IMG/VR virus record: IMGVR_UViG_2703718837_000001
DNA: 49,704 bases
Source of the DNA: a virus
Lineage: Duplodnaviria; Heunggongvirae; Uroviricota; Caudoviricetes
Reading direction: 5' to 3' (one strand)
Shown: positions 13,444 to 20,530 of the stretch, piece after piece
Layout of the letters: the number at the start of each line of letters is the position of its first letter
How positions within the stretch are numbered: position 1 is the first letter of the stretch
Notes under the pieces: generated by a model
The model's input: the letters and a program-made list of their open reading frames with translations, nothing else
Databases searched by the model: none
Told to the model about the DNA's origin: nothing
Made by a program: the position numbers and the translations under genes

Positions 13444-13872
13444 TTATAAGCCGCGCAGTGATTTCGGCGCGGCAAACGTCTCAATCATCTTTTCCGCGAT
13501 TGCCGACCAGGTGTGACACTGGACCTTTTCAGCATTTTTCACGCGATCAACGCGAGCAATAACCTCATCCCAATCAATCCGCGACTTGATAACCATATGG
13601 TTCACCAAATCCAGGCGATCCGGCGGAAGGCAATCGGGCGGCGTTAATATCAACGCTCCACACATTGCCGCCTCAAGAACAGTTAATCCAAGGCTTTCGG
13701 GATGCGTAACGATAAAAACGTCACTCTTACGCAATTCAGCTGCAAATTCGGTTGCTGGTACCGGCGTCCGTCTGTATGGGGTTACCGATATATTCCCCGG
13801 ATCAATGGTAATCAATCCGTCATCGGTCAACGTTCTGGCCTCATACGGAACGGTCAGACTCTGAAGGTTCAT
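13444..13872 (-). pseudogene. 3' remnant of a GT-B (GT1/GT4-type) glycosyltransferase gene
   Basis: The 142-aa ORF contains only the C-terminal donor-binding region (VFIVTHPESLGLTVLEAAMCGALILTP). The same frame stays open upstream with no start, through the tRNA fragment to about 14072, so the gene is truncated at a recombination junction. Confidence 0.6.
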
Positions 13873-13998
13873 AAGGATACTTAAGGAGTGATCAAAACCA
13901 CTAACATCAAATGCAGCGTGGTCTACAAAAATACGCAGAACATCGTCTGTTTTGGTTTCATCGACGCATGTGCCATACGCCGTACAACTACCAAATAA

Positions 13999-14044
13999 GG
14001 TGTCCCCTACCGGGCTTGAACCGGTGGCTGTGCGATTATGATCC
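13999..14044 (-). tRNA. Truncated tRNA: 3' part only (anticodon-loop region with CAT, T-arm, acceptor 3' strand)
   Basis: Minus strand reads ...GATCATAATCGCACAGCC-ACCGG-TTCAAGC-CCGGT-AGGGGAC-A-CC: canonical T-arm (5-bp stem, TTCAAGC loop) and acceptor strand. No complementary GTCCCCT 5' strand or D-arm upstream, and anticodon-stem pairing fails. P1 carries tRNA genes in this region as I recall. Confidence 0.5.
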
Positions 14045-14168
14045 CTTTGAAAAATAAATGCAGATCTAATAGGTTGTGTTATTTACTCATTGGCACAGAT
14101 TGCCATTACTTATCTAGTTTTAGCCATTTTTACCGCACTTCATCGCTACTAGCCTATGTTTCTTTATG

Positions 14169-15104
14169 TTAGAATGGTACATTGTCATCCATCTCAAAGT
14201 CTGGGGGTGCAACAGATATTCGATGAATTTCATTTCTTTCCATATCCATCATTTGATCCTCCTGCTCCCCATCATCGTACCACGATGAAGTGTCTACCTC
14301 TAAAGCTTCAGATATGACTTCAAATGTTTCAGGAGAGTCTAAGTGAGAAGCCATGTGCAACGTGAACGGATAACTTTCTTCTAGGCTAACCCCATCATTC
14401 CTAGAACCATATTCTTGAGTAACATAGACAGTACCGGAAGCATATATATTGATGTACTCATCATCAATCGACGTGATTCCAAATTCTTCGACTTCAGTGT
14501 AATCTACATACGCATGATTCGCGATAGTCACTAGGTTTTCAGGCATAGAGCTTACCGCCGTGTCAATAACTGCATTTCTAATTTTATCTTCGAGAGTACG
14601 AATTAATTCATCTCTACAAATATGTATACCATTTAGTATTTCTGTAGCGATCTGCAGTATTTGTTTGGCCTTCAGGAAGAACTCTTGAGGTGATGGATGC
14701 ATATATTTCTCTGTTATATGCGTATATTTATTTAAGAAGAAATAAAGCTTAAGCATCTCATCTATTCTTTCATTCGACTCCTCCAGGAACTCTTCCCCCA
14801 AGTACGCATCTGAAATTTTAGCTTGAGAACAGTATTTTAAACGCTGTCTTCTAGATATTTCGTAATGTTCATGTTCTCTCTTATACCACGATGCTTGTAA
14901 TAATTTATCATTCGGAGATTTTTTCTCGATAATATGCTTTATTAGCTCGCGAATTGAAAATGCAAAGTTATGAAAACGTAATGGGTTGCCATGTGATGCA
15001 TAATTTCGCAAACAAGCTGTGAATAATTCTTTTTCAAAATCAGCTTCGAGGTGACTCATAAAATCATTCACAAAATCAAGAGATTGTAGTTTTTTAAGCT
15101 TCAT
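14169..15104 (-). CDS. Orphan 311-aa protein: helical N-domain, beta-rich middle, hyper-acidic linker and an SSB-C-terminal-tip-like end (..PPDFEMDDNVPF)
   Basis: Single long ORF in a very AT-rich segment. The C-terminus is compared from memory with the E. coli SSB tail ..EPPMDFDDDIPF. RNYASH (aa 33-38) resembles an Rx4H motif. No other family recognised. Confidence 0.7.
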   Translation of the reverse strand: MKLKKLQSLDFVNDFMSHLEADFEKELFTACLRNYASHGNPLRFHNFAFSIRELIKHIIEKKSPNDKLLQASWYKREHEHYEISRRQRLKYCSQAKISDAYLGEEFLEESNERIDEMLKLYFFLNKYTHITEKYMHPSPQEFFLKAKQILQIATEILNGIHICRDELIRTLEDKIRNAVIDTAVSSMPENLVTIANHAYVDYTEVEEFGITSIDDEYINIYASGTVYVTQEYGSRNDGVSLEESYPFTLHMASHLDSPETFEVISEALEVDTSSWYDDGEQEDQMMDMERNEIHRISVAPPDFEMDDNVPF

Positions 15105-15927
15105 CGTGTAACCTTATATTCCTGTCTCAGATTTAATATCGGATTCAACCGAATCCTCTTCTTCTAAATTTTAAAGTCGTGTAACATTACAAAATATTCA
15201 AGGTTAAATTGAACATATATCATTGTTATTTAGATGTAAGTATATCTGAGCACTCGTTACAATACCAGAATATTACCATCATTCATCATAAAGTAACTAG
15301 CGAAGGTGTGGCGGAAACGTAAGTAAGTTGTTCTCCAGGTAATTCAATACCTGTTCTTTCTAAATAGCTGCGCGGAATAGTGATCTACTTTCGTCCGCCC
15401 TTGCAGGGCGAGACATTAGGTCGGCGTCCCCTACCTGACCGTGCTGCATCAGGCTTGAGTGTGTTGCCCATATGCAACATACCACACATCAGTAAACGGC
15501 AAGTGTAGTAGTATTAGGCGCAGAAATTTAGTACAGCCCAGAATGCGCCGTAACAATCAATAAACCACTACACCCGCGCCCTGGCTGCAATTCGGTAACA
15601 GGGGATCCCCCCTAGCTTCCAGCGTGATTAGCGCCTTCAGCATGACGGAATATACCCGTAAATACGAGGAACTCTACCCAAAGGCTGTTAAGAACCGGCT
15701 GTTACGCTGAATGAAAAAGGACGTAACAGGTAAGGACGCTGACCAGAAGATGGCCCCTTCTCGTTCATCTGGTTAATCAAACCAGCGCCCTTGCCTGTTA
15801 TGCCTCCTCGTTCCCTAATACACAGACGGGGACAACCCCGTGGTGTCAGGCTTCTTAGGCCGCAACCATCATCAGATCATCGTTTGCATTTACTTTAATG
15901 GTCAGTTTGTGACTGCTCCCCGCCCTG

Positions 15928-17221
15928 TCGGGCGAGGCTTCCCACTTCTCAGGCCACTACCGTCTGTGCGACGGATTTACGCTGGCCTCCATGGGCGGAG
16001 ACGACGAGTCCCGCCGCCTGTAGTTCCAGTATTCCTTTTTGCCGGATGTTGAGTGCCGCATTGATATCGCGGTCGTGCTCTGCTCCACATTCAGGGCATC
16101 GCCAGATGCGTTTATGAAGCGGCATTTCCGGCATTTTGTAACCACAACAATAGCAGGCTTTCGAACTGGCAAACCACTGGTCGAGTTTTACTAGGTGAAC
16201 GCCTTTTTCCGCTGCCTTGTACTCCAGCTTTGTGATGAAGCTATGCCAGCCTGCATCACCTATCGCTCTTGCCAGATTGTGGTTTTTCATCATGTTGGCT
16301 GTTTTCAGCGTCTCGACAATTACCGCTTGGTTTTCGTCAACAATTGCACGAGAGAGCTTGTGTTGAAAATCAGCACGGGCATTAGCCACCCGTTCGTGTA
16401 ACGCTGCCAGACGGATTGTGGCCTTTTTACGATTCGCGCTTCCCTTTTGCTTGCGGGATAAGGCTTTTTGTTTGCGTCGCAGATTACGGCTGGCATTGAT
16501 GAGATGGCGGGGATTTGCAATTTTTACCCCATCAGACTTGATGGCAAAGTGCGATAATCCCATATCTAGGCCAGTAACTGTTGATATCAACGTGGGTTTT
16601 GCCGGAGCTTCCATGCCATCATCACAGAGAATTGAAGCATAGTATTTCCCCGTTGCTGAACAGGTGATAGTGATGCTTTTCAGCTTTCCATGAAGTTCAC
16701 GGTGAAGGCGTGCTTCTATTAGGGACAGTTTTGGGATTTTGATGGCATTATCCAGCACCTTAATCCCGACACAGTGATAGCTCGATTGTTTTCCGTGTTT
16801 ACGTTTAAACGTCGGGAACCGCGCTTTCAGCTTCGGATTAAAAAAGTTGGAAAATGCCACATCAAGATTAATTACCGCCTGTTGCAACGCAATAGAATCA
16901 TATTCTTTAAGCCATCCATACCTGCGGGATTTCTTTGCCACTGCAAGCAGCGGTTTCAGATCGTTACGCGGACTTAAATTTACTCCATGTCGCTGGTAAG
17001 CATGTTTTTTGATGTGAAGAGCTTTGTTGTACGCAAAGCGCACTGCACCGAACTGGGCATTGAGGTACTCTGCCTGTTCTGGTGTCGGGTAAATGCGTAC
17101 TTTTGTTGCTCTTAACATAGTCACCGCTCATTGATACAGGCTTTTTATGCTAACACCGTAATGATTTTTTTAAAGCCCTGTTGGCTTTTCGCCTTATATA
17201 CCCGCCCGCATTAGGCGAGGG
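15928..17221 (-). mobile_element. Minimal IS200/IS605-type (IS1341-like, tnpB-only) element bounded by similar imperfect palindromes; true ends uncertain
   Basis: ccccgccc-tgtc-gggcgagg (15928-15947, just past the tnpB stop) and acccgccc-gcatta-ggcgaggg (17200-17221, upstream of tnpB) share CCGCCC-N4-6-GGCGAGG in the same orientation. A third copy lies at 15394-15413. Confidence 0.45.
15949..17124 (-). CDS. tnpB: TnpB (IS200/IS605-family OrfB, RNA-guided RuvC nuclease), apparently intact
   Basis: 391 aa. N-terminal KVRIYPTPEQ...FGAVRFAYN (OrfB_IS605 helix), RuvC-I GLDMG, RuvC-II VIVETL, zinc ribbon CYCCG...CPECG, RuvC-III HDRDINAALNI. No adjacent tnpA. Confidence 0.9.
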   Translation of the reverse strand: MTMLRATKVRIYPTPEQAEYLNAQFGAVRFAYNKALHIKKHAYQRHGVNLSPRNDLKPLLAVAKKSRRYGWLKEYDSIALQQAVINLDVAFSNFFNPKLKARFPTFKRKHGKQSSYHCVGIKVLDNAIKIPKLSLIEARLHRELHGKLKSITITCSATGKYYASILCDDGMEAPAKPTLISTVTGLDMGLSHFAIKSDGVKIANPRHLINASRNLRRKQKALSRKQKGSANRKKATIRLAALHERVANARADFQHKLSRAIVDENQAVIVETLKTANMMKNHNLARAIGDAGWHSFITKLEYKAAEKGVHLVKLDQWFASSKACYCCGYKMPEMPLHKRIWRCPECGAEHDRDINAALNIRQKGILELQAAGLVVSAHGGQRKSVAQTVVA

Positions 17222-17273
17222 TTTACGGCGTTTTTCGCTAAACCGCCGCAAAGTCGCTAACCATGACGAAACC

Positions 17274-17302
17274 TCTGAAAAAAATGCCCACCCGAAGATG
17301 GG
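17274..17302 (-). terminator. Rho-independent terminator downstream of dmt
   Basis: Minus strand reads GCCCA-tcttcggg-TGGGC followed by T7. Confidence 0.7.
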
Positions 17303-17488
17303 CAAACTGGATGGAAGCTCGTTACGCACTTCGGAGTTGCCTCTTAGGCGCATGGTCAACCTGGCAACTCGGTGGTTTGTCTGGGAGGACTAGGCCCAGC
17401 CATGCTTACCGCCGCGCCTGTCGCGGCTAACAGCTAAATCGCTCTAAAAATCACGATTCATTGATTCGATATTACACTAATAAATTTA

Positions 17489-20400
17489 TTATAGCAATAT
17501 TGCTATAACGTCATGAGCAACACCACGAGTGTCTCCCTTACAAGACACAGAACGTCTGGCAAAAAGAGGTTCCACTCTGAAGCCACTGTCCTGATAAAGT
17601 TCTCTGATGTTTGGCGCGCCACTGTTAGTAATGAGAACCTTTGCACCTCGGCGATGAGCATCCGTCAACAGAGACACCAGGCGTTTTTGCTCTTCAAACT
17701 TAAAGTCATGACCGGAATAGTTCGTGAACCCCTCTGTATTGGGGAGCGGTTCATACGGCGGATCGCAAAAGATGACATCTCCTTCTCCGGCAGCTTCAAT
17801 CACCGCTGCAAAATCACCGCATACAAACTCAGACCGCCCTTCCGCACCGAGGAAGGCTTCCATCTCCTGTAATGGAAAATGCGTAGACTTATACTTCCCA
17901 TACCCGACATTGAACTCACCGGCCTGGTTGTAGCGCGTCAATCCATTAAAACAATGTCGGTTCAGGAACAAAAACGCCGCTGCGCGATGTAAATCATCAT
18001 AGACTTGTTTGTTAAACGCATTCCGTACTGCCAGGAATCCCTCCTGGGTGTTGTAGTCCAGGAAGAAACGATGTGCCAGAGTGATAAGTGAATGCGCCTC
18101 GCGTTGCAGAGTCTTGTAAAAGTTAATCAGGTCAGCATTCACATCATTTAGCAGATTTTCCTGATATCCGGCATTCATGAAGACAGCTCCGCCACCAACG
18201 AAAGGTTCAATCAGGCGCTTCCCTTCTGGCAAATAGCGAAAGATTTGTTCCAGAACACCAAATTTTCCACCAGCCCATTTGAATATGGGCCGTTCGAATT
18301 CTGCCGCTGGTTTAACCTTTCGCTCTTTTGTTTCACTCCCTTCTTTTTGCCGACATGCAGCCTTAGTAATCCGATCGCCAATCCAGCGCATTACTGGTAT
18401 TGCCATACTATTTCCGATCGCTTTGTAACGCGGTCCGTCAGCTGCAAGCATCGCGGCCTCTTCTTCGTTTAAATCAGGATAGTTATTGCGAAGGTATGCT
18501 AGTTCATCTGAAGAAACTTTTTTACGCTTTCCCGTAGGGATCAACGTATGCCAATCAGGAAAACCTTGCAGCCTTTCACATTCGACAGGGGTAAGACGGC
18601 GCATTCTATCGTCGCCGAGCAATACAATTGGTGCTTCATGGTTACATGTCAAAGTTGGTGCCGAATTATCGGTTTTTATCTCAGCCCCTCCTTGCCCATG
18701 TGCCATGGCAATTATGTTTGTATCATCGCAAGATCTGATAGCGATGTTTGAAGTATATCTGGTAGTTTCCTTCCCCTCGCCTCTGCTCGGCGCAATATCC
18801 CGGCGCTCGCCTTCGAACTCAAAAAGTACCGTTGCGGGATCGAGGTCTGTTCGAGCACTTGCGACAACAAACACGCGTCGGCGTCGTTGTGCCACTCCGA
18901 AGTATTGGGCATCAAGGATTCTCCAGGCCACCTTTCGCTGCGGTCCATAAATACAACCACACTGCGGCCACTTTGGAGCATGGCAACCGGTTTTGCCATC
19001 CCACCGCCAGAACGCGTTACTTTTTCCTGATTCAGGTCGATCACCTGGTTCAAATGGCGCATCTTCTCCAGCCAATCCGGCAAGGAAACATCCGAAGGCG
19101 TTATCTGCCGATGACAAGACCCCTGGGACATTTTCCCAGACGATAACGGCTGGTTTGAGAAATGACTCAGCCCGTTTGTCGTCAATTGCATTTGCAAGCT
19201 CCACATACTTTAAAGTTAGCGCGCCACGCTCATCATCAAGCCCACCACGTAATCCAGCGATACTGAATGCCTGACAGTTATGGACCACCGCACCATTGAG
19301 GATATAGGAATGATCACCTTCGACTTCTATGTTGTATACAGTATCTAGGCCTACCGATTTAAACTCTTTGACTGTTCGTAAAAGCATTCCATGAGCCAAT
19401 CTTGATTTACGTGACAATTTCTGCGGGCAGATTGTTACCTGATAATAATTCCGTTGATTTACCACGCGATCCTCAATCACTTTTTTGGGCTCAACTTCAA
19501 TAAAGCTGACCGAAGAAACATAACCACAAGTCTGTGACAACTCCGCAACGCCCCAAGCAAGCGCAGGACTAACACTATTAATTCTAAATCCCGCTTTACC
19601 ACTTGGTGTCCCATCAGTATCAAGATAGCCTTGTAAAAACACATGACGCAATGGATGCGACATCACCCATGCAGGGATACGCTTAGCATGGCTTAACTCG
19701 CCAAAATGTTCATTAAGCCAATTGGCATAACACGTATCATTCAAGGTTACTTTGATGCTCCCTCGGATTTCGCTTGCCACGGAAAATATGTTTTCTGGTA
19801 TGCGGCAATGAAACTTTCTCAATTTCTGGCAATTTATGCCAAAAACAACCGCCTTCTTAGATTTACCTCTCCATCTCCTAATATATCCATCGCCAACATA
19901 AGCGCCCGCAAGATACATAGCCTGTTCTTCAGACAAGAACCGAGAACAAATATCTGGAGATGCAATATTGAAATTAGTTAGAGCACACCATTGATATCCC
20001 GGCATATCACATGCTGCTCGCCATTCCGGTTCAGACAACAACTCTCTCTTAAAATATGTGCCATTTTTCCGGGTGTTTTGGGCTTTCCACCGAACCGCCA
20101 GGAAGGGATGGTCATTGGTTGTTCTTATACCTAAAGGCTGCCCAACGGCATTAAGTAACCCCGTATTAGCTATTTTTGAACCAACTCTTTTTACTTGTTG
20201 TAACCGCCCGAGATGACTGACTACGTAATCGCCAGGGCAAACATCTTCTATTGGTTTATAACCATTTTTACAAAGAACCATATGCCCCGCGGTAAAACAT
20301 GGTGTCCCTCCCACCAGCACATCAGGGGCTTCAATTTCTCCGGCCTGGACTTTTTGGGCGAGTTTTGTCATGTCGCCAAGGTTCGCGACATGGGGCCAGC

Positions 20401-20530
20401 GGTGCGCAAGAACGGCAGAGGGAAAAGGCTCGATTTCAGCAAACCACGCCGGACGCATACCCAACGGTTCCCATGCAATGCTCGCGGCTTCAATTCCACT
20501 GCAAACAGATCCATAGCACAGCTCTCTCAC
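17489..20530 (-). CDS. dmt: Bifunctional DNA methyltransferase Dmt (N-terminal C5-cytosine MTase plus C-terminal Dam-like N6-adenine MTase) interrupted by an intein
   Basis: C5 motifs: I ([11 protein letters not shown]), IV (GGTP/CQAFS, split), VI (ENVPG), VIII (QRRRRVF), X (GNSMAIPV). Dam part: [21 protein letters not shown]. 1013 aa including the 341-aa insertion. Confidence 0.92.
19277..20299 (-). other. Intein (Hint domain plus LAGLIDADG homing endonuclease), Dmt residues 78-418
   Basis: Starts with CFTAGHMV (block A); TNDHPF (block B); [11 protein letters not shown] and [10 protein letters not shown] (two LAGLIDADG motifs); [21 protein letters not shown] followed by Cys (blocks F/G plus the +1 nucleophile). 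Excision recreates GGTPCQAFS. Confidence 0.9.

Follow-up and report, generated by a model that had tools for sequence, protein, structure and literature searches.

The systems closest to the locus in this report are ISEc46, IS608, and ISDra2. Full-length copies of ISEc46 are 1763 bp long and lie in E. coli chromosomes, e.g., NZ_CP123963. IS608 of Helicobacter pylori inserts 3' of a tetranucleotide without duplicating it and has subterminal hairpins at both ends, and the choice of target by its TnpA is tied to the tetranucleotide 5' of the foot of the LE hairpin. ISDra2 of Deinococcus radiodurans (PDB 8exa, 8h1j, and 8bf8) encodes a TnpB nuclease, and its published omega-RNA layout of four stems and a pseudoknot (PMC10097598) was used here for comparison.

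The element described here is, on the evidence of its sequence, a derivative of ISEc46 with an internal deletion and with both ends retained. The original prediction had offered a choice between a non-autonomous IS1341-type element and a domesticated nuclease. The former holds, in the form of a tnpB-only IS200/IS605 element with both ends kept and one internal deletion, and we consider it very probable that this is a non-autonomous, trans-mobilizable ISEc46 derivative with a TnpB retention/homing module rather than a domesticated gene. It is an ordinary mobile element, and identical copies are already in RefSeq as RNA-guided endonuclease. What is added for the ISEc46 family is the exact ends, the T-Y-A-G target/TAM, an omega-RNA model, the natural covariation of LE guide and target, and the recognition of one old lineage without tnpA that is still spreading. 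Nothing specific on the biology of ISEc46, on TnpB in phage-plasmids, or on tmRNA-like genes of phages turned up in literature searches. Feature coordinates are collected in Table 1; "the window" denotes the whole stretch of DNA analyzed (49.7 kb).

Table 1. Positions of the element, its parts, and its immediate context in the window
Feature	Coordinates	Strand	Remarks
Whole element, tnpA-deleted, ISEc46 family of IS200/IS605	15909..17237	-	1329 bp; from the P1 empty site and the RCS47 ISEc46 copy
Target/TAM TTTAG, core TTAG	17238..17242	-	Directly 5' of LE; T-Y-A-G at independent sites
LE subterminal imperfect hairpin	17200..17226	-	Arms 17220-17213 and 17207-17200; read from sequence
Intrinsic terminator, P1 "dicF-like" region	17285..17304	-	About 45 nt upstream of LE; context, outside the element
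Deletion junction, ...ATCATTACG joined to GTGTTAGC	17149..17165	-	Break between 17157 and 17156; tnpA-less and full-length copies aligned
tnpB CDS	15949..17118	-	389 aa from ATG at 17118; ORF reaches GTG at 17124
Predicted omega-RNA scaffold	15909..16019	-	37-sequence alignment, covariation; layout as in published ISDra2 omega-RNA
Predicted guide AAACTGACCATTAAAG, 16 nt	15893..15908	-	Just outside RE; by analogy with ISDra2; 20 nt if extended to 15889

Ends, target, and context of the insertion

The boundaries were set from the P1 empty site (L001, between 2870 and 2871) together with the ISEc46 copy of RCS47. The LE begins CGAAAAACGCC at 17237 and the RE finishes ...GGGGAGCAGTCAC at 15909; the tnpB reading frame was correctly delimited in the original prediction, but the full element is larger than this ORF. 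In P1, ...GGTTTAG is followed directly by AAACTG..., and the occupied site has the same two sequences on either side of the element, with no target-site duplication at its ends. IS200/IS605 elements insert 3' of a defined tetra- or pentanucleotide that is not duplicated, and they have imperfect subterminal palindromes at both ends but no terminal inverted repeats; the element shows both features. It lies in the ban-operon leader of a P1-like phage-plasmid, a region under C1 control, where it stands 3' of TTTAG and a strong terminator sits just upstream of it.

At each of the 28 independent insertions, the window included, the 5' flank ends in T-Y-A-G. The LE hairpin has the arms CCTCGCCT and GGGCGGGT, matching the RE arms CCTCGCCC and GGGCGGGG, and in 37 homologues pairing of the RE hairpin is 99%. 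A guide tetranucleotide, TAAA (17225-17222), precedes the LE hairpin. Its second base tracks the target, being A with TTAG at 15/15 sites (window counted) and G with TCAG at 10/11; since this covariation is also seen in tnpA-less copies, TnpA-mediated insertion in trans is implied.

The insertion splits a conserved, unannotated gene of P1-like phage-plasmids for a tmRNA-tag-like RNA, in which 10 codons specify an ssrA-like tag, ANDDLMMVAA. This RNA occurs in at least five phage families, in lambdoid HK633, and in P1-like phages, and it is spread over many families of enterobacterial phages. Rfam searches over 14800-17800 gave sub-threshold tmRNA matches in the flank only. No tRNA-like domain was found by ARAGORN at default settings; at relaxed thresholds the tRNA-like domains were mutually inconsistent, and most members lack a canonical T-arm. 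No description of a phage RNA with a 10-codon ssrA-like tag was found in the searchable literature. We considered whether the predicted guide could also target unrelated phages that carry this block and rejected the idea: what they have in common is limited to the TAM and the initial ~10 nt, with 12/16 as the best match, so cleavage there is unlikely. The splitting of this RNA could matter more than the TnpB element itself.

Loss of tnpA and relation to ISEc46

The Y1 (HUH) TnpA that an IS200/IS605 element would encode is missing from the window copy. As the original prediction had it, no tnpA lies within the window (tblastn with the ISEc46 TnpA as query; best E, 0.9), and because full-length relatives carry tnpA between the LE and tnpB, the copy is a non-autonomous derivative. 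The missing part is an ISEc46 segment of ~430 bp with the divergent tnpA, lost at the break between 17157 and 17156; element positions 1-86 and 82-1329 match NZ_CP123963 (L003) on either side of its tnpA. The junction, which reads TAGCATAAAAA where full-length ISEc46 has TAAAATAAAAG, is common to all tnpA-less copies (6/6 examined). These sister copies are found at many sites, and the flank differs from site to site.

Apart from this deletion the likeness to ISEc46 is close. Nucleotide identity is 88% over LE positions 1-86 and 81% from tnpB through the RE, the 81-88% range referring to copies annotated as ISEc46 (RCS47) or lying next to an ISEc46-family tnpA (NZ_CP123963), and the TnpB proteins are 88% identical at the amino acid level. 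The RE terminus is identical, and the TTAG-type target and hairpin arms are alike. The LE hairpin of the window differs by two substitutions at the stem ends, which might weaken recognition by TnpA. Of 5426 complete E. coli genomes, 450 (8%) have the ISEc46 tnpA, whose product is WP_000064874.1, in the chromosome; the gene was plasmid-borne at 5/485 places.

TnpB and the predicted omega-RNA

Counted from its first GTG, the ORF (15949..17124, minus strand) has 391 aa, while RefSeq starts identical copies at the ATG (WP_039022915.1). It contains the Pfam domains HTH_OrfB_IS605, OrfB_IS605, and Cas12f1-like_TNB, each above its cut-off, and scores 347 bits against NCBIfam guided_TnpB (cut-off, 100). 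The RuvC motifs named in the original prediction are all present, with GLDMG at 185, VIVETL at 268, and HDRDINAALN at 350 in GTG numbering, and so is the zinc ribbon (CxxC...CxxC), with CYCCG at 324 and CPECG at 343. In ISDra2 TnpB the corresponding motifs are GVDVG, GTEHL, and HDRD, whose D191, E278, and D361 we take to be the catalytic residues. D187, E271, and D353 of the window protein align with these three (8bf8/8exa/8h1j; E=3e-79), giving the split RuvC D-E-D triad and zinc ribbon expected of a TnpB nuclease. The ORF is intact and annotated as protein coding in 18/18 occupied plasmids; pHYEC7-mcr1 is an example of a carrier. With a dN/dS of 0.06-0.16 against eight relatives, pairs of tnpA-less copies included, tnpB is an intact ORF evolving under purifying selection. 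A consensus promoter scan found none upstream of tnpB; a sub-threshold candidate at the deletion junction, with TTTAAA at 17174-17169 and the extended -10 TGTTAGCAT at 17155-17147, is possible.

The last ~111 nt of the element form a predicted omega-RNA that is supported by covariation. In the alignment (A1, 37 sequences), 97.6-97.8% of the cells were paired, compared to 36-55% in slid controls, and 13 pairs showed compensatory changes, with 0/500 shuffles reaching as high; the 3' 17 nt of the alignment were fixed by the way the sequences were collected and carry no covariation information. Stem 1 pairs -111..-105 with -97..-91, Stem 2 pairs -87..-83 with -37..-33, Stem 3a pairs -79..-73 with -49..-44, Stem 3b pairs -66..-62 with -56..-52, and Stem 4 is the RE hairpin (15937-15918). 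The pseudoknot joins GAC (-102..-100) to GUC (-5..-3) and is 99% paired. A long-range helix proposed by RNAalifold (columns 22-26 with 189-193) was dropped because both of its sides are invariant, and the ISDra2-type pseudoknot was used. All of the helices are kept in the window copy, and no Rfam omega-RNA family matched 14800-17800 at E values up to 1.

A structured omega-RNA that overlaps the 3' end of tnpB and ends at the RE is what a TnpB nuclease would be expected to have. Since the RE is only 40 nt beyond the tnpB stop, most of the scaffold lies inside the tnpB 3' end; the original prediction placed an omega-RNA at the right end, spanning the end of the gene, as we do, but its reach of 100-200 nt downstream was too far. 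The predicted guide is identical to the sequence after TTTAG in P1 and most empty-site plasmids, and TAM and guide stand in the right order at the empty site. We infer that TnpB reads TTAG as its TAM.

Occupancy, proposed mechanism, and comparison with known systems

Among the 471 PLSDB records with the locus, 453 have the empty site and 18 (3.8%) are occupied. Over the 50-nt junction, 424 of the empty-site matches are at least 99% identical, and the perfect TAM-plus-guide target is also present in P1, P7, and SJ46. Because the predicted target is present, uninterrupted, in about 96% of related P1-like plasmids, the element offers a ready-made natural setting in which competition between phage-plasmids through TnpB could be tested. 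The PLSDB copies with at least 99% identity are every one at this single site, so no recent transposition is evident in the sub-lineage. All 18 occupied plasmids have the same non-P1 left flank, and empty-site relatives with this flank type are only 92-95% identical. The comparison of these two groups gave no support for homing into other P1-like backbones: given the common flank we see no sign that the element spread into canonical P1 backbones, and together with the 3.8% occupancy this flank leaves no homing drive in the comparative data. The best explanation is that the element inserted once into a P1-like (IncY) phage-plasmid lineage and was then inherited with that backbone. One divergent element (94%) at the same site (L186) was considered as an independent second insertion and rejected; its LE positions 1-112 are identical and its interior resembles another variant (97.7% to L004), which fits recombination between copies.

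Canonical-context P1-like alleles in IMG/VR comprise 12 variant and 37 canonical contigs, which vary only at the final base of the TAM and at positions 3-7 of the target; one further variant differs upstream of the TAM as well. The TAM/seed polymorphisms in some P1-like alleles include TTTAT, TTTAC, AAACCG, and AACCCG.

The mechanism that we propose draws on established TnpB/TnpA biology from ISDra2, IS608, and Geobacillus IS605-family work. The tnpB mRNA would be processed to an omega-RNA of ~111-116 nt plus the 16-nt guide, and the TnpB-omega-RNA complex would cut DNA in which TTAG is followed by AAACTGACCATTAAAG, i.e., a site that the element has left or never entered. Repair by recombination with an occupied copy would then restore or copy the element. 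The occupied site would be immune because the element parts the TAM from the target and the RE ends in TCAC. Transposition to new sites would require TnpA in trans, most plausibly from a chromosomal full-length ISEc46. Empty-site targeting of this kind, which the original prediction had directed at competing P1-like elements, fits the sequences as a generic TnpB mechanism, since the predicted guide matches the 453 empty PLSDB sites.

That the same cleavage has been co-opted, so that TnpB-omega-RNA acts on incoming or co-resident uninterrupted P1-like elements in superinfection exclusion, incompatibility, or homing, is unlikely. The perfect target in 453/471 related plasmids and in P1, P7, and SJ46, the purifying selection on tnpB without a linked tnpA, and the confinement of IMG/VR allele variation to those few TAM and target positions all point that way, but cleavage of empty sites is a default by-product of any TnpB element, so no new function is needed, and frequent trans-mobilization explains the selection equally well. 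Both ends of the element are intact and show no decay, occupancy is low and tied to the non-P1 left flank, and the TAM/seed positions, which also vary between unrelated phage families that carry this RNA element, may simply be free of constraint. An element inside a block conserved in nearly all P1-like phage-plasmids could turn TnpB against rivals; we nevertheless give little credence to a standing RNA-guided weapon that excludes or homing-converts them, with the TAM/seed polymorphisms as escape variants. Domestication was the other reading in the original prediction, and it is not supported: TldR-like genes have an inactivated RuvC, lost ends, and a fixed host target, whereas here the triad, LE, RE, TAM context, and omega-RNA are intact and sister copies lie at many sites.

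The absence of tnpA in cis, the lack of recent transposition in the sub-lineage, the two LE hairpin substitutions, and the want of a clear promoter in the consensus scan would suit a dead relic, stranded without transposase and with a non-functional TnpB and omega-RNA. We regard this as very unlikely, given an ORF intact in 18/18 occupied plasmids, an intact triad and zinc ribbon, a dN/dS of 0.06-0.16, and the preservation of every omega-RNA helix. PADLOC models for Cas12f and Cas12u match the protein (E down to 1e-61), as they would a type V (Cas12f/V-U-like) CRISPR effector, but these matches reflect known TnpB-Cas12 homology, and scores are far higher with the NCBIfam models IS200_TnpB and guided_TnpB. 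Within ~2.5 kb there are neither direct repeats nor an array, no direct-repeat family was found in 13500-19000, no further cas gene was noticed in the ORFs up to ~3 kb away, and the protein is flanked by IS200/IS605 ends; such an effector is extremely unlikely here.

As a probable trans-mobilizable ISEc46 derivative, the element can be set beside several known systems. It shares with ISDra2 the D/E/D residues and zinc ribbon, and its predicted omega-RNA likewise has four stems and a pseudoknot (in ISDra2, -5..-3 with about -103) at nearly equal distances from the 3' end; it differs in its T-Y-A-G target (TTTAG, compared to TTGAT for ISDra2), in having no tnpA, and in that its activity is predicted. 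As in IS608, the target tetranucleotide covaries with the one that precedes the foot of the LE hairpin, A going with T and G with C, although the IS608 target is TTAC rather than of the TTAG type and the window copy encodes no TnpA. Like TldR and other nuclease-dead TnpB derivatives, it has a TnpB homologue without a linked transposase, but its RuvC triad and both transposon ends are intact and its guide is taken from the flank instead of matching a fixed target in the host. The tnpB-only architecture is shared with the IS1341 group, but this element arose from a tnpA-plus-tnpB element by one internal deletion and is not ancestrally tnpB-only. Its relatives include PATE-like mini-elements of 46-47 bp, which have a single LE/RE hybrid hairpin and are also flanked by TTAG or TCAG.

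Ends, origin and target choice of the element

In a megablast comparison with phages, the middle of the region proved to be related to the ISEc46 copy in phage RCS47, and the flanks matched P1. Alignment of the window, P1 and RCS47 gave the uninterrupted P1 site as ...GCGGCGGTTTAG/AAACTGACCATTAAAG... (slash, insertion point) and the occupied site as ...GCGGCGGTTTAG[CGAAAAACGCC ... GGGGAGCAGTCAC]AAACTGACCATTAAAG..., so that the ends of the element are unambiguous. The ends mapped in this way show neither a target duplication nor terminal inverted repeats; LE carries an imperfect hairpin with arms CCTCGCCT and GGGCGGGT, and RE has nearly the same arms, CCTCGCCC and GGGCGGGG. An end structure of this kind, with hairpins near the ends, is a hallmark of the IS200/IS605 family. 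In P1, the insertion point falls within the C1-repressed ban operon leader, upstream of tRNA genes; the terminator belonging to the annotated “dicF-like region” is ~45 nt before it.

Full-length ISEc46 on E. coli chromosomes is 1763 bp long, with a divergent tnpA between LE and tnpB, as in NZ_CP123963 (L003), where tnpA is annotated as an ISEc46-family transposase. Positions 1 to 86 of the element match this chromosome directly before tnpA and positions 82 to 1329 directly after it; therefore, a stretch of ~430 bp with the whole of tnpA is absent. The deletion junction, ATCATTACG/GTGTTAGC, and adjoining derived bases are common to all six tnpA-less copies aligned (those of the window and RCS47 and four others, found on plasmids, a chromosome and viral contigs), which indicates, on sequence grounds, that the tnpA-less form has a single origin and diversified later; dS reaches 1.25 in this lineage. 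The element family occurs in 802 of 5,426 complete E. coli genomes and ISEc46 tnpA in 450, nearly always on the chromosome, so a trans-acting transposase is often available.

Sister tnpA-less copies, 90 to 93% identical, adjoin leading-region-type plasmid genes: psiB/psiA and ardA for one plasmid copy (L005), antirestriction genes for the plasmid matches H39-H45, and a plasmid-like segment with antirestriction and parB genes for a chromosomal copy (L004). This location fits the single-strand DNA preference of the IS family.

Public genome and viral collections were searched with the terminal 17-mer of RE; because chance alone would give about 70 matches in the genome collection, a match was kept only if it was preceded by a TnpB homologue or had a recognizable LE. 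The copies fall into size classes of ~1763 bp (tnpA and tnpB), 1329 to 1337 bp (tnpB only), and 46 to 47 bp (mini-elements with one hybrid LE/RE hairpin). T-Y-A-G ends the 5' flank in 28/28 independent sites, and T versus C in the target covaries with the tetranucleotide that abuts the LE hairpin foot on its 5' side: TAAA accompanies a TTAG target in 15/15 sites (the window is included in both counts), and AGAA or TGAA accompanies TCAG in 10 of 11. IS608 TnpA uses DNA-guided target choice, and the pairing of LE guide and target in the ISEc46 family is of the same kind. The covariation also holds in the tnpA-less copies, which implies that they were inserted by TnpA supplied in trans.

The mini-elements, carried by viral and genome contigs (L182, L177, L174, L161, L140, L139, L138, L129, L131, L079, L017/L168, L115, and L067), fuse the 5' part of LE to the 3' part of RE between TTAG or TCAG flanks; in form they resemble PATE/MITE-like derivatives of this family. 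L131 has two copies at different sites.

TnpB and the predicted omega-RNA

The TnpB open reading frame was confirmed; identical RefSeq proteins begin at ATG 17118 and have 389 aa (WP_039022915.1). In profile searches, it scores far over the curated cut-offs of three Pfam TnpB domains and of NCBIfam guided_TnpB, and ISDra2 TnpB structures align to nearly the whole of it (E=3e-79). Its GLD187MG, VIVE271TL, and HDRD353 lie opposite the ISDra2 motifs GVDVG, GTEHL, and HDRD, which contain catalytic D191, E278, and D361, and the zinc ribbon has both of its CxxC pairs, in agreement with the original prediction of an intact nuclease. The predicted lack of a nearby TnpA was also confirmed for the ISEc46 type, since tblastn over the 49.7-kb window with ISEc46 TnpA found none (best E, 0.9). 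The dN/dS of tnpB is 0.06 to 0.16, both among tnpA-less copies and against full-length copies, a substitution pattern indicating that TnpB function is maintained without a linked transposase.

The last 170 nt were aligned across 37 distinct relatives with TnpB 40 to 99% identical. RNAalifold gave nested helices with compensatory changes in 13 pairs; 97.6 to 97.8% of cells are paired under this structure, 0 of 500 shuffled alignments scored as high, and pairing fell to 36 to 55% when the partners were shifted by 1 to 3 columns. The 3' 17 nt, fixed by the way the relatives were collected, are uninformative, and the covarying stems are all upstream. The layout matches that of the ISDra2 omega-RNA almost position for position (PMC10097598). 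An omega-RNA had been expected to span the 3' end of tnpB and ~100 to 200 nt downstream; instead, ~70 nt of the predicted scaffold lie within the coding sequence and only 40 nt past the stop codon.

The 17-nt terminus shared by RE and omega-RNA, GGGCGGGGAGCAGTCAC, is identical downstream of TnpB homologues with 28 to 50% protein identity in a Micrarchaeota MAG (L083), a Haladaptatus plasmid (L072), L135, L155, L159/L163, and others, archaeal contigs among them, counting only matches with TnpB upstream against ~70 expected by chance in the collection. Stem 4 and the pseudoknot strand would thus be under very strong constraint.

Features of the element and its surroundings (negative positions are counted from the RE end; ISDra2 positions from PMC10097598)
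Feature	Position	Strand	Remarks
Element	15909-17237	-	1329 bp
TnpB ORF	15949-17124	-	
Predicted omega-RNA scaffold	~15909-16019 (or to 16024)		From helix positions
Predicted guide	15908-15893 (or to 15889)		Flank
Stem 1	-111..-105 with -97..-91		ISDra2 -116..-111 with -91..-86
Pseudoknot	Stem-1 loop GAC (-102..-100) with GUC (-5..-3)		ISDra2 -105..-103 with -5..-3
Stem 2	-87..-83 with -37..-33		ISDra2 -84..-81 with -35..-32
Stem 3a	-79..-73 with -49..-44		ISDra2 -77..-71 with -48..-42
Stem 3b	-66..-62 with -56..-52		ISDra2 -70..-49, unresolved in structure
Stem 4	-29..-22 with -17..-10		Tetraloop; ISDra2 tetraloop -20..-17
Conserved block	15574-15908 + 17238-17284		Also P1 (L001) 2446-2915, L188-L196, L197 onwards
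Tag-like ORF	15855-15887	-	10 codons, ANDDLMMVAA-stop
dmt	17489-20530	-	1013 aa vs 754 aa in P1 and pHYEC7
Intein in dmt	19277-20299	-	341 aa, Hint_2 + LAGLIDADG_3; CFTAGH...VVHN
Solo nuclease ORF	14169-15104	-	Both “pPIWI-associating nuclease” Pfam domains; PADLOC Aga_Nuclease E=2e-62

The tmRNA-tag-like RNA split by the insertion and neighboring genes

The predicted guide comes from a flank that belongs to a block conserved across P1, P7, D6, and SJ46. The ISEc46 derivative splits this block 21 nt upstream of a resume-like codon, where GCAAACGATGATCTGATGATGGTTGCGGCCTAA, 21 nt downstream of the insertion point, encodes a tag-like peptide, ANDDLMMVAA-stop, compared to ANDENYALAA for the E. coli ssrA tag. 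The Rfam permuted-tmRNA model (tmRNA_permuted) matches the block below threshold (24 to 33 bits; cut-off, 47), and the leader is highly structured (z=-3.2 for the 470-nt P1 fold). Sensitive blastn with the P1 leader found the same block in 258 phage records, always in unannotated gaps, from at least five phage families (carriers include Drexlerviridae, Schitoviridae, Ackermannviridae, and Deseoctovirus), lambdoid HK633, and P1-like phages. In IMG/VR, a pattern scan for the block gave at least 120 matches. Among the matches listed, 129 instances have 18 different tags, all of exactly ten codons and beginning A-N-D/E, 17 of the 18 ending in A, with the same peptide arising from up to six nucleotide variants; this constant form, together with the synonymous variants, suggests that the tag is translated. 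A hairpin and pseudoknot directly after the stop codon covary between classes, as read from the alignment. ARAGORN found no tRNA-like domain in the block at default settings and inconsistent ones when relaxed, and a canonical T-arm is absent near most block members. The only carriers of tmRNA genes listed in an exhaustive 2014 survey were mycobacteriophages and Bacillus phage G (PMC4131195), and our literature searches found no description of this phage RNA, which may deserve separate study.

The copy in the window is probably defunct, because it is split by the IS, a 36-nt leader piece (ATGAGTCGTCCCCCGTCAAAAAATCGACCGCAGAG in P1) is deleted at about 15826-15841, and similarity to P1 ends at 15574, the 3' part of the RNA and the tRNA genes having been replaced. 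ARAGORN found no tRNA genes in the whole window; tRNA-Asn and tRNA-Thr directly follow the leader in P1, P7, D6, and SJ46.

In dmt, the intein immediately precedes the catalytic Cys in the C5-methyltransferase motif (GGTP/CQAFS), and plasmid NZ_CP020936 (L186) has the same intein-bearing allele. The solo nuclease ORF, with no adjoining Argonaute-sized ORF, lies within a segment substituted for the P1 tRNA/plp/upl/tci region.

Mechanism, occupancy and alternatives

The empty site consists of the predicted TAM (TTTAG) and then, directly, the predicted guide sequence. This arrangement, the ends, hairpins, target, omega-RNA structure, and intact nuclease are established by the comparisons here, and the remaining steps follow published TnpB work. 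By this analogy, the tnpB mRNA would be processed into omega-RNA, TnpB would cut DNA carrying the TAM and a guide match, and recombinational repair off an occupied copy would restore or spread the element. An occupied site would be safe because the element parts the TAM from the target and RE ends in TCAC.

PLSDB has 471 records with the locus, 453 with an uninterrupted junction and 18 occupied, so the predicted target is abundant among relatives; with a 50-nt empty-junction query, 424 of 470 PLSDB matches were at ≥99% identity. All 18 occupied plasmids have a non-P1 left flank in common, their closest empty-site relatives are only 92 to 95% identical, and no copy ≥99% identical was found at any other site in PLSDB. 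No drive by the element is apparent in these comparative data.

The copy in NZ_CP020936 (4710-6038) is at the same site as that in the window, with ~99% identical flanks and identical LE positions 1 to 112; its interior falls to 94.4% identity and most resembles the L004 variant (97.7%). A second independent insertion was rejected on the combination of identical LE and flanks with a divergent, L004-like interior, a pattern indicative of recombination or gene conversion among ISEc46-derived copies. Among the IMG/VR matches listed, P1-like empty-site alleles with the canonical upstream context (37 canonical copies) vary only at the last TAM base (TTTAT, three; TTTAC, one) and target positions 3 to 7 (AAACCG, four; AACCCG, four; AAACTGG, one), and one more TTTAT allele differs as well in the sequence before the TAM. 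Such variants could be escape from TnpB, or they could simply mark unconstrained RNA positions, given that the same positions vary between phage families.

TnpB may have been co-opted for phage-plasmid competition, but no observation here calls for that reading. Purifying selection on tnpB, together with the intact RNA and protein features, makes a dead relic unlikely. A CRISPR effector is excluded, as the PADLOC Cas12f matches come from homology alone and no direct-repeat array was found in 13500-19000; a TldR-type domesticated regulator is likewise excluded by the intact RuvC triad and ends. The original prediction had offered a non-autonomous IS1341-type element or a domesticated nuclease; the former stands, as a tnpA-less ISEc46 derivative that has kept its ends, and TldR-type domestication does not.

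Identical copies on IncY plasmids, pHYEC7-mcr1 among them, carry the RefSeq label “RNA-guided endonuclease TnpB family protein,” and the sister copy in the RCS47 record is already annotated ISEc46. An element of this type, with this mechanism, is textbook knowledge, to which the predicted TAM, the omega-RNA model, the guide/target covariation, and the single-origin tnpA-less lineage are incremental additions.
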